A stretch of 15,824 nucleotides of DNA from a virus (lineage: Duplodnaviria; Heunggongvirae; Uroviricota; Caudoviricetes). The notes beneath the pieces were generated by a model that was not told the origin of the DNA, made no database searches, and was given only the letters and a program-made list of their open reading frames with translations. The stretch lies in the IMG/VR virus record IMGVR_UViG_2663763282_000011; one strand, given 5' to 3'. Position numbers and translations under genes: made by a program. Below, piece by piece: positions 6,611-8,016 of the stretch (the first letter of the stretch is position 1; the number at the start of each line of letters is the position of its first letter).

Positions 6611-6858
6611 TAAATTATTTGTTCGTGGTTGTTCCACGTTGTTCACTGAGCGGATCGGCATATTTTACCCGAACTGAATCATGATTATTCTCGCCCGTGG
6701 TGCCAGGACGCTGGGGCCACTTTCCCGCCTGTTAATGTGCTCGCCAATATTCATTACCAGGCGGGAAAACGATCGGTGCGATTACTGATTTCCTTATGAA
6801 AAACGGTTGAGTGTTTGCCGCGTCCTGGAGTTCCTTACTTAACCCCAGGACTTTTTTT
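6611..6858 (+). promoter_or_regulatory. Control region of the capsid/packaging operon: TTGTTC repeats with inverted repeat CGTGG-N5-CCACG (6617-6646), 10-bp inverted repeat TTCCCGCCTG-N26-CAGGCGGGAA (6722-6767), and hairpin GTCCTGG/CCAGGAC plus T7 (6822-6858) abutting the capsid ATG
   Basis: All elements read directly. A promoter-like TTGTTC-N16-TATTTT is present. Function is inferred. Confidence 0.45.
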
Positions 6859-8016
6859 ATGCAGAGAATAATCGAATTACGCCAGCAGAAAACCGCCATT
6901 AAAAATCAGATGCGCGACATGCTGGAGAACGCTGAAAAAGAAAACCGCAGTCTTAACGATGCTGAGGGCGCAAAATTTGACGAATTACGCGCTAAAGCTG
7001 AATCCCTCGATAAAGACATTTCCCGCCTTGAAGCCATTGCAGACGAAGAGCGCAGCAAGCCAGGTAAAAGCAGCCAGACCACTGACCCCGCAGAACTACG
7101 TAACTACATTCTGACCGGTGAAACCCGCGCATTAAGTACAGGCGTTCCCGCTGATGGTGGTTATACCGTTATCCCTGAACTGAACACCGAAATCATGCGA
7201 ATGCTGGCGGATGAATCCACCATGCGTCGCATCTGTACCGTGAAGAAAATCAGCAGCAACGAGTTTAAGCAGCTTGTTTCCGCTGGCGGTGCGACCGTTA
7301 ACCACGGTGAAGAGGGTAAGGCACGCGAACAGACCAGCACCCCGCAGATTAACGAGGTGAGCATTAAGCTGTATCCGGTCTATGCGTACCCGCGCACCAC
7401 ACAGGAAATCGTGGATTTTTCCGATGTGGACATCCTTTCATGGCTGACGGGTGAGATTGGCGACACCTTCACGGAAACCGAAGAAAGCGATCTGGTTGTG
7501 GGCGACGGTGACAAAAAAGCAAAAGGTTTTTTATCCGTACCCCGTGCAGAGAAGAACGACAAAGAGCGTGATTTTGGTACGTTGCAGGTAATTAAACCTT
7601 CCGAATCTCTGGCGTGGACATCTGCGGACCCGCTGATCGACCTGAAATTTGCATTACGTAAAAAATACCGCAAAAACGCGGTCTGAGTGGTTAACTCCAC
7701 GACGGCGGCAAAACTTCAGAAGGTGAAGAACGCGAACGGTGATTATATCTGGCGCGACCGTTTACAGGCGGGTGATCCTGATACGTTGCTGGGCCTTCCG
7801 GTCGAATATCTGGAGTTTATGCCTGATAACGTTATTGCCCTGGGTGACTTCAAACGCGGTTACTACATTGTTGATCACGAAACAGGTGTTCGCACCAGAC
7901 CGGACAACCTGACAGAACCAGGATTCATCAAAATTTTCACGCAAAAATATTTAGGCGGTGGCGTGGTGGATTCGAACGCGATCAAGATTCTGGCACTGCC
8001 GGAAGACGACGATTAA
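6859..8016 (+). CDS. HK97-family major capsid protein with N-terminal delta (scaffolding) domain, interrupted by an in-frame TGA at 7684-7686 (ORF-track pieces 6811-7686 and 7687-8016 are the same frame)
   Basis: The N-terminus is coiled-coil-like (MQRIIELRQQKTAIKNQ...), as in HK97 delta domains. The segment after the stop ('NGDYIWRDRLQAGDPDTLLGLPV...ALGDFKRGYYIVDHETGV') is the conserved C-terminal region of HK97-fold capsid proteins. The stop falls in 'YRKNAV*VVNSTTAAKL', where homologues I recall have 'NA-W-VMN'. The total of about 385 aa matches HK97 gp5 size. Start codon uncertain (ATG 6859 has no SD; GTG 6811 is an alternative). Confidence 0.85.

Follow-up and report, generated by a model that had tools for sequence, protein, structure and literature searches.

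A candidate two-level control region, with phased boxes and a folded leader, upstream of the capsid operon in an EcCIEDL933-type capsid-forming island

Phage-inducible chromosomal islands (PICIs) of the capsid-forming kind (cf-PICIs) make their own capsids and take only the tails from helper phages, and their prototype is EcCIEDL933, or O-island 51 (CP-933C) (10.1101/2022.09.08.507074; PMC3378721). The element itself is already known, and so is AlpA as its master activator: alpA is required for the induction of EcCIEDL933 (10.1101/2022.09.08.507074), its overexpression is reported to promote EcCIEDL933 reproduction in a strain used for purification of the element (10.1101/2025.02.11.637232), and in the related EcCICFT073 AlpA activates PICI genes as well as its own promoter (PMC6092414). 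The searchable literature on PICIs covers genes and particles; in it we found no account of how the capsid and packaging genes of cf-PICIs are switched on, and no description of the promoter, the repeat boxes or the leader of the capsid operon. Here we analyze a stretch of 15,824 nucleotides (IMG/VR virus record IMGVR_UViG_2663763282_000011), referred to below in its whole length as the window, which judging by its genes carries a cf-PICI of the EcCIEDL933 / O-island 51 type, about 15 kb long and adjoining phoQ. Our subject is the region that precedes the capsid gene of this island, and the result is a cis-regulatory map consisting of boxes, a promoter, a predicted transcription start site and a leader with two alternative folds. 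We propose, with a probability of about 0.5, a composite model in which the capsid and packaging operon is controlled at two levels, by an activator-dependent promoter and by the folded leader. The combination of these parts is undescribed in the literature that we searched, in particular a four-segment switch without a leader peptide in which the first segment is the 5' end of the transcript. The elements, with hairpins abbreviated HP, are as follows.

6578-6605, plus strand: intrinsic terminator that would end the upstream replication/accessory operon and insulate the capsid promoter (7-bp stem with five GC pairs, then a T-run)
6606-6644, plus strand: four direct repeats in helical phase, TTGTAA at 6608-6613 and TTGTTC at 6619, 6629 and 6639, inside the conserved TTTTGTAAATTAT
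6664-6691, plus strand: predicted weak sigma-70 promoter (-35 TTTACC at 6664-6669, 16-bp spacer, -10 TATTCT at 6686-6691)
6697-6720, plus strand: HP1, the 5'-terminal leader hairpin GUGGUGCCAG-GACG-CUGGGGCCAC, holding switch segments 1 and 2 (dG -15.6)
6703-6711, plus strand: segment 2, CCAGGACGC, a candidate anti-terminator or anti-sequestor complementary to the 5' arm of HP3
6721-6768, plus strand: HP2, a long hairpin directly abutting HP1, with arms TTTCCCGCCTG (6721-6731) and CAGGCGGGAAA (6758-6768), an 11-bp basal stem and a 26-nt spacer
6820-6851, plus strand: HP3, the hairpin next to the ribosome-binding site, holding segments 3 and 4 (GTCCTGG 6822-6828 / CCAGGAC 6845-6851)
6852-6858, plus strand: U7 tract between HP3 and the AUG, giving terminator anatomy together with HP3 or, alternatively, a U-rich S1/standby element
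6859-8016, plus strand: HK97-type major capsid gene, the first gene of the packaging operon, with an in-frame TGA at 7684-7686

The closest described element is EcCIEDL933 itself, which needs alpA for induction and shares with the window its gene order and a control region and leader 97.9% identical to those of strain EDL933; the window copy differs in having a nonsense codon in the capsid gene and in being without the phrog_1957 gene. For the DNA part of the map, the nearest parallels are phage 186 Apl, P2 Cox, satellite P4 Vis and RdfS of integrative and conjugative elements, small winged-helix proteins of the excisionase type. The binding sites of such recombination directionality factors (RDFs), at att arms and promoters alike, are direct repeats spaced by one helical turn, and the proteins double as regulators (PMC7498355, PMC11963761). 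Apl and Cox, however, mainly repress early promoters, while the array of the window lies at -56 to -87 of a predicted late capsid promoter, a position that would imply activation.

For the RNA part, the likeness is to the trp-type attenuators, in which 1:2 and 3:4 pairings exclude a 2:3 pairing and the 3:4 helix is followed by a U-tract before the first structural gene. The leader of the window differs from them in having no leader peptide, in that segment 4 carries the Shine-Dalgarno (SD) sequence, and in that the U-tract of the window type is present in one lineage only. Segment 1 is moreover the very 5' end of the predicted transcript, and therefore ribosome stalling cannot be the sensor; the only mini open reading frame (ORF) in the leader (ATG at 6796, four codons) is situated between HP2 and HP3, and the other aligned lineages do not have it. 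The lambda PR'-qut-tR'/Q system and the Pseudomonas aeruginosa AlpA/tB system are similar in placing a promoter and then a terminator before the first late gene, and there the short terminated RNA can have a function of its own (StxS, PMC7547250), but the window is without a Q-like protein, an element for binding between -35 and -10, or a pause element. The coat and maturation leaders of MS2 also hold a capsid ribosome-binding site (RBS) in a stable hairpin with single-stranded flanks, with a 5' element that communicates with the RBS (PMC5934652). In contrast to MS2, the window is a DNA element with a regulated promoter, and its 5' element finds its partner not in the SD but in the 5' arm of the RBS hairpin, which it would open.

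The leader was compared across related islands. We gathered 12 related loci from reference genomes and 80 from IMG/VR, the latter having capsids 64-100% identical; five of the 12 reference loci, those from Shigella, Rosenbergiella, Citrobacter, Erwinia and Gilliamella, are closely related. The leader sample comprised 46 unique sequences, and 14 representatives of lineages other than that of the window were folded individually. The window leader (6697-6875) has a minimum free energy (MFE) of -68 kcal/mol with a z-score of -4.4, and each of the 14 representatives folds by itself to the same three-domain plan, with z between -2.3 and -6.2. In this plan a 5'-terminal HP1 with a GACG loop is followed 0-3 nt later by a long HP2, then by an unpaired C-rich linker and by HP3, and HP1 and HP2 form the first two MFE domains in all 46 unique leaders. 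HP1, which the initial annotation of this DNA had missed, is the most conserved element: over the 46 sequences 99.5% of its cells are paired, four pairs are changed on both sides and the GACG loop is invariant. HP2 corresponds to what had been described as a perfect 10-bp inverted repeat with a 26-nt spacer; the spacer is as described and the repeat is 11 bp long. As RNA it folds with a dG of -22.6 and a z of -5.6. The MAFFT alignment of HP2 is not structural, and HP2 was assessed by folding each sequence, which gave stems of 5-13 bp starting 0-3 nt after HP1 in 46/46 leaders, built from at least nine unrelated basal stem sequences.

Variation within the window lineage points the same way. Three independent C-to-U variants were seen, one per hairpin, namely C6720U in HP1 (L024), C6724U in HP2 (L020 and L023) and C6845U in HP3 (L026), and each turns a G-C pair into G.U; changes that preserve pairing in this manner argue for RNA structure over DNA palindromes. 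An Rfam cmscan of the whole window at E<=1 returned only a mir-135 match at 5602-5683, within the putative origin repeats, and because of these repeats downstream of the primase gene we take it as a chance match. Among 50,697 phage records, BLAST with the control region gave no match for the version found in the window, and the leader of the main class had three matches there, of which at least one (vB_KppS-Ant, 16.5 kb) resembles a cf-PICI deposited as a phage. With so few matches among phage records, a module of this design is uncommon at phage late promoters.

The last domain, HP3, closes the leader at the start codon. The initial annotation had pointed to a 7-bp stem, GTCCTGG/CCAGGAC, followed by seven T residues that run into the ATG; this is what we find (6822-6828, 6845-6851 and T7 at 6852-6858), and the stem is in fact longer, being extended by GUU/AAC across an A.C mismatch, with an 8-nt loop. 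Folding gave a dG of -14.1 kcal/mol and a z of -4.45, and none of 200 shuffles was as stable. HP3 is thus more stable than the accepted terminator 250 bp upstream (-14.1 vs -12.6), and with its U-tract it has the anatomy of an intrinsic terminator, which a simple terminator scanner missed because of the A.C mismatch. The tract is U7 or U8 in all 15 sequence variants of the window lineage, and no such tract occurs in the other HP1-bearing lineages, although one other lineage (L053, L054) has a terminator-like hairpin and U7 in mid-leader. The HP3 homologues of the other HP1-bearing lineages end 0-8 nt before the AUG, with a few folds closing over it. The motif CUUAAC(C) is kept in the HP3 loop (6833-6844 in the window; also L002, L004 and L048) though the stems differ completely. 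Two ideas about the loops, a boxA-like reading of CUUAAC and a kissing interaction between the HP2 and HP3 loops, were judged by eye and are too weak to claim.

The capsid start codon is at 6859-6861, and not at 6860, with Met1 aligned in all six capsid homologues. It had also been stated that this start has no SD, and that the lack was unusual for such a gene. An SD-like AGGA does lie at 6847-6850, 8 nt upstream of the ATG, and is buried in the 3' arm of HP3, as in a sequestered RBS; leaders of the main class have the C-rich linker in addition. Comparison of the leaders suggests that an occluded weak SD recurs across cf-PICI lineages and so is not an anomaly. In the MFE structure of the window leader the U-tract and the AUG are themselves paired, with UAUGAAAAA (6796-6804). 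From these sequences we read HP3 primarily as a gate on the RBS, to which the EcCIEDL933 lineage would have additionally gained the anatomy of a terminator. The suggestion of a terminator or attenuator in the leader thus survives in the HP3-U7 anatomy and in the alternative fold described below, within the limits set by a U-tract confined to this lineage. That RNA polymerase stops at HP3 and U7 in vivo seems to us a possibility a little short of even.

What makes the leader more than a row of hairpins is a complementarity between its two ends. Segment 2, CCAGGACGC (6703-6711), in HP1, is the exact reverse complement of GCGTCCTGG (6820-6828), in the 5' arm of HP3; this 9-mer occurs in the window only at 6703-6711 on the plus strand and 6820-6828 on the minus strand, compared with 0.12 occurrences expected. 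When the first 26 nt of each leader were compared with its last 60 nt, the longest complement fell at the same place in all 46. The main class pairs AGACGUGA with UCACGUCU, L068 and L086 pair GACGGGA with UCCCGUC, and in the window lineage the complement is 9 nt long; the pairs that flank the invariant GACG/CGUC core vary in step: UA in 37, CG in 7 and GC in 2 leaders at one position, AU in 39 and GC in 7 at another, and AU in 31 and GC in 7 at a third. Over the sample, 81% of the cells of the long-range helix are paired; sliding the partner lowers this to 26-47%. The covariation score is 0.202 vs 0.101, with 0/500 shuffles as high, a result that rests on some 3-5 independent lineages and on shuffles that ignore phylogeny, and we regard the evidence for long-range pairing of HP1 with HP3 as suggestive, short of proof. 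In L048, L053 and L054, which are more distant, the predicted 5' end of the leader pairs with the RBS region in the MFE structure itself. The 3:4 helix (the candidate terminator) and the 2:3 helix (the candidate antiterminator) exclude each other, which is the arrangement of an attenuator.

The promoter that would produce this leader is marked by an equally fixed geometry. A TAnnnT hexamer lies exactly 5 nt before HP1 in 46/46 unique promoter regions, in seven forms that include TATCTT, TATGTT, TATATT, TATTCT and TAAATT, whereas at a 16-bp spacing the -35 matches at just 2-5 of its six positions across the same regions. Transcription is predicted to start at about 6697-6699. Short-leader lineages, with an unstructured leader of about 35 nt, keep the promoter module without the hairpins, which makes promoter and leader separable. 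Activator-dependent promoters usually have this anatomy, a weak core behind phased upstream sites, and we infer such dependence here too; it fits the earlier suggestions that this is the control region of the morphogenetic operon and that the operon depends on an activator. The TTGTTC repeats had been placed over a -35, but the -35 that we can support (6664-6669) is downstream of the whole array (6608-6644).

The array itself consists of the three TTGTTC repeats already recognized and a fourth unit, TTGTAA, which lies inside the TTTTGTAAATT anchor 11 bp upstream of the first TTGTTC. The spacings are 11, 10 and 10 bp, and the centers of the boxes fall at about -87, -76, -66 and -56 relative to the predicted start, the array spanning about -92 to -54. 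An inverted repeat, CGTGG-N5-CCACG, which had been listed as a separate feature, is present; its letters belong to the spacers that separate the repeats, sister lineage L002 has it disrupted (CCAGG), and it is probably an incidental by-product of these spacers. Of 86 related loci, 73 have the TTTTGTAAATT anchor (with at most two mismatches) followed by three 10-bp units, and its distance from the promoter is fixed; relative to the capsid ATG it stands at about -215 to -258 in most and at about -118 to -136 in the short-leader lineages. The units are TTGTTC in the window and its E. coli relatives, and TTGTAC/TTTACC/TTACCC or TTGTTC/TTTTCG/CTGTTT elsewhere. Diverged E. coli islands have kept nothing of the region but the repeat block (6589-6649). 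The pattern TTGTTCN4TTGTTC, with at most two mismatches, has 11 matches in the window compared with 1.9 expected, a number that 0/200 shuffles reached. These matches cluster at three places: the stretch from the int stop codon to alpA, the capsid promoter, and the right end of the island; the features concerned, besides the capsid array, are listed here.

1277-1333, minus strand: second array, between the int stop codon and alpA, with TTGTTC, TTGTTC, TTGTTG, TTGTTG and TTGTAT at a 10-bp period (five to six units)
1605-1793, plus strand: alpA, encoding a 62-aa winged-helix regulator of the excisionase type (Pfam Phage_AlpA, E 5e-18)
14221-14246, plus strand: third array, about 120 bp from the right end of the island and next to the phoQ stop codon, with TTGTGT, TTGTTC and TTGTTT at a 10-bp period

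All three arrays recur in two relatives, L001 and the Shigella flexneri SFBU1023 locus (L003), which have a further one just upstream of int, so that arrays stand at both ends of the island, and L022 and L027 have arrays at their right ends. It is because the arrays also sit near alpA and at the island end, as known for winged-helix RDF regulators, that the island's own AlpA becomes a candidate for the protein that binds them: the repeats are one helical turn apart, they lie near the attachment ends, and the element carries a gene of the excisionase family. An AlpA-like ORF was found in 57 of the 69 loci with enough upstream DNA, and most AlpA alleles have in common a putative recognition-helix motif, S-R-[ST]-x-R-[YWF]. 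In L015 there are two proteins of the Phage_AlpA family, one overlapping int and Xis-like, and the TTGTTC array is found solely at the capsid promoter, with none at the ends. This locus (NZ_CP128979.1 2198500-2219500) is a related capsid-forming island situated within a prophage large-terminase gene, that is, a helper-embedded PICI (HE-PICI). On balance, the sequences incline us slightly toward AlpA as the binder of the TTGTTC boxes, a motif of which we found no description in the searchable PICI literature.

Upstream of the boxes, the terminator reported by the initial annotation is confirmed (stem at 6578-6595 and then a T-run; dG -12.6 kcal/mol, z -3.75; detected by the scanner). It coincides with a module boundary, as in megablast many E. 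coli islands are similar to the window only from about 6573-6577 onward. In L001 and L003 the terminator sequence, CAGCCGGAGCAATCCGGCTTTTT, occurs in two copies 363 bp apart (at 9198 and 9561 of L001), on either side of a 74-aa phrog_1957 gene. The window has a single copy (6577-6599) and is without the 363-bp segment holding phrog_1957, which is the outcome expected from recombination between the two copies.

Putting these elements together, the following pathway can be envisioned. The terminator at 6578-6605 would insulate the capsid operon from upstream transcription, and the four phased repeats (6608-6644) would recruit an oligomerizing winged-helix protein, most likely AlpA, which would then be both excision factor and activator. 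Bound at about -56 to -87, this protein would activate the weak sigma-70 promoter (6664-6691). The transcript would start at about 6698 with HP1, continue into HP2, and end its leader of about 160 nt with HP3 and U7 running into the AUG. In the closed fold, with 1:2 (HP1) and 3:4 (HP3) paired, transcription would be terminated and/or translation blocked; in the open fold, 2:3 pairing (6703-6711 with 6820-6828) would remove HP3. As the closed fold is favored by about 13 kcal/mol, the default state would be off or strongly damped, and opening would need disruption of HP1 or a held 2:3 pairing, by way of a factor or a kinetic window. A further and more doubtful step is to see the leader as an undescribed class of cis-regulatory RNA switch, which without a leader peptide controls both termination and translation and is flipped by a trans-acting signal. 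Such a signal could for instance be a protein or RNA, of the helper phage or of the satellite, with affinity for the invariant HP1, and it would time the capsids to the late phase of the helper. In the EcCIEDL933 lineage the terminated 160-nt leader, with its hairpin and U-tail, might in addition act as a small RNA; a literature search found neither a small RNA nor a transcription start mapped in O-island 51.

Besides the narrow phylogenetic base of the covariation, several points weigh against this two-level model. The promoter of the window matches the consensus at 8 of 12 positions, under the 9/12 cut-off of the consensus scanner, which hence did not report it. The U-tract is absent from the HP3 of sister lineages, and termination is therefore not the ancestral or conserved function of HP3; a terminator ahead of the most abundant structural protein would, besides, be costly. 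For the bulged A-to-C change in L068, HP3 by itself also offers an explanation. The closed fold has an advantage of 13.5 kcal/mol in the window, and in two other classes of about 6 kcal/mol, and we identified no trigger for opening it; an antisense partner for HP1 was sought elsewhere in the window and none was found. As for the activator, three AlpA alleles accompany identical TTGTTC arrays, so that the link between allele and box is only partial, and in the lineages with boxes other than TTGTTC no box arrays were seen upstream of alpA or near the att sites. Arrays on both att arms would also suit arm-type sites of the integrase, and the literature leaves unresolved what binds the arm motifs in HE-PICIs (PMC10111431).

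The main competitor for the leader, which we hold to be unlikely though it deserves serious attention, is that HP3 and U7 act on translation alone, with the weak SD occluded as in the MS2 coat gene, the single-stranded flanks, U7 in the window and the C-rich linker in sister lineages, serving as S1 or standby sites, HP1 stabilizing the 5' end, and RNA polymerase stopping rarely or never in vivo. The HP3 of other lineages, without a U-tract, still ends 0-8 nt before the AUG with SD-like bases in its 3' arm, the main class has 13-19 nt of unpaired C-rich linker before it, and the capsid protein needs a high output. In the E. coli rnd leader, a hairpin followed by U8 is reportedly needed for translation and not for termination (Zhang and Deutscher 1992). 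Rescue of a sequestered coat RBS by standby tails of 16-18 nt has been described, with S1 and U-rich or A/U-rich enhancers implicated (PMC5934652). However, a GC-based stem of -14 kcal/mol that leads straight into U7 is a canonical terminator, so that some termination is hard to avoid; the U7 is paired with UAUGAAAAA in the MFE structure and so is not clearly single-stranded; and a purely translational role leaves the conserved complementarity of HP1 and HP3 unexplained. The opposite emphasis, that HP3 and U7 form a constitutive terminator bypassed with a dedicated antiterminator like Q, N or AlpA, possibly from the helper phage, and that the same factor passes the terminator after the capsid gene, appears quite improbable. 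Terminator anatomy directly before the first gene, the second terminator-like hairpin at 8026-8047, and the precedents of lambda PR'-tR'/Q with its StxS RNA (PMC7547250) and of P. aeruginosa AlpA, where the terminator tB lies just upstream of alpB (PMC7969949), all speak for it. But no Q- or N-like family was recognized among the island proteins with Pfam or PHROGs, there is no -10-like pause hexamer in the initial transcribed region (6697-6725), and post-capsid hairpins are equally frequent in lineages without a structured leader; overexpression of alpA, for its part, is reported to promote the reproduction of EcCIEDL933 (10.1101/2025.02.11.637232). The analogy with P. aeruginosa AlpA is rejected, as the two share a name without a sequence match: in phmmer against the PDB the PICI protein hit only 8c3t, an 'AlpA family phage regulatory protein', and the P. 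aeruginosa protein, whose residue numbering runs to at least 142 and whose fold is Q21-like (PMC9371919), contrasts with the 62 aa of PICI AlpA. The P. aeruginosa element, moreover, lies between -35 and -10 (PMC7969949), while the repeats of the window are upstream of the -35. A put-like antitermination by HP1 and HP2, considered on account of their adjacent and promoter-proximal position as in HK022 put, gains no support, since intra-operon terminator-like hairpins are equally common without HP1 and HP2 and there was no Rfam match. Of the picture first drawn for this region, then, the activator and the attenuator-like leader agree in outline with these sequences, the missing SD is wrong, and the helper-supplied antitermination is unsupported.

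It is far less probable still that the inverted repeats are DNA operators for dimeric repressors and not RNA hairpins at all. HP1 does overlap the predicted +1 to +24, the classic position of a repressor, and symmetric changes in both half-sites of an operator would mimic covariation. The helices, though, are asymmetric, with A opposite CC or UG opposite GG as internal loops; variants yield G.U pairs, which would be T.G in DNA, in all three hairpins, and G.U is common in HP2 stems; the HP2 stems are unrelated across lineages while their position and length stay; and the long-range complementarity of HP1 and HP3 has no rationale at the DNA level. With the RNA reading of the leader retained, the matter left to weigh is the identity of the protein at the boxes. 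That they are bound by something other than AlpA, be it the arm-binding domain of the P4-type integrase, a PerC-family activator or a host protein, we think improbable. The arrays on both att arms of L001 and L003 recall lambda arm-type sites, a PerC-family gene is immediately upstream in E. coli islands and falls in a PHROGs class of transcriptional activators, AlpA allele and box sequence are loosely linked, and the TTTTGTAAATT anchor is better conserved than any regulator of the island. On the other hand, the integrase of L015 is 42% identical and this island lacks TTGTTC at its ends, while its capsid promoter carries an identical array; just 17 of 78 loci have PerC, which in the window and L001 is a 53-aa SSB-PerC remnant, yet the capsid gene of L001 is intact; and AlpA is an experimentally demonstrated activator of PICI genes (PMC6092414). 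PerC was accordingly rejected as the activator. The small phrog_1957 protein was also rejected as a regulator, as it has no known domain and is absent from the window and from 32/78 loci.

The remaining features of the island are listed below.

1-1230: P4-type integrase gene
3471-5515: D5-type primase gene, accompanied by a DUF4222 gene
6394-6555: ORF for a PerC-like 53-aa remnant, among small ORFs
6859-13272: packaging block, with HK97-type capsid, protease, portal, connectors, HNH, and both terminase subunits, small and large
Right edge of the window, opposite strand: phoQ

Int, alpA and a primase-replication gene (pri-rep) are thus combined with an HK97 capsid, protease, portal, connectors, HNH, terS and terL, and among the island genes in the window there are none for tail or lysis; it is because of this combination that we regard the element as a cf-PICI. 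The annotation of E. coli STEC1587 has the same gene organization, and about 360 of 5,426 complete E. coli genomes have the 302-bp control region at 94-99.7% identity. The capsid gene matches Pfam Phage_capsid (E 3e-29). Its in-frame TGA (7684-7686) replaces codon 276, a Trp (W276) that is invariant in six aligned homologues; the same stop is found in S. flexneri SFBU1023, whereas L001 has an intact 385-aa homologue, and the island copy of the window probably cannot build capsids. Given the shared stop, Shigella is a possible source of the window. Between the capsid and protease genes, at 8026-8047, is a strong terminator-like hairpin (dG -15.7), and most related islands have hairpins of the form GGGGC-loop-GCCCC with a T-run after the capsid gene; the hairpin at 8026-8047 likely brings about partial termination or stabilizes the 3' end of the mRNA, setting the capsid excess. 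The PerC-family ORF fuses about 24 N-terminal residues of SSB to the C-terminal 29 residues of PerC, and it appears to be a deletion remnant of the ssb-perC pair that is intact in L015. Just downstream of the primase, 5523-5760 is dense in direct and inverted copies of CTGTCTACC / GGTAGA, and this is where the replication origin of a PICI, with its iterons, is expected. GTGACA occurs three to four times with a 10-bp period at 13826-13853, about 500 bp from the right end, possibly as arm-type sites of the integrase. Masked runs of N cover 8612-8699 in the protease gene and 11191-11352 in the small terminase gene.

The hairpin leader spans 46 distinct sequences from Escherichia/Shigella, Citrobacter, Erwinia, Rosenbergiella and IMG/VR contigs, and it is a candidate RNA motif absent from Rfam. 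The boxes, in turn, may be the DNA motif of AlpA, which is the master regulator of Gram-negative PICIs, and would link excision, autoregulation and late activation. If the two-level model is true, it would explain how the costly capsid operon is kept silent in the lysogen, and the boxes, promoter and leader would provide parts for the engineering of PICI-based delivery particles.

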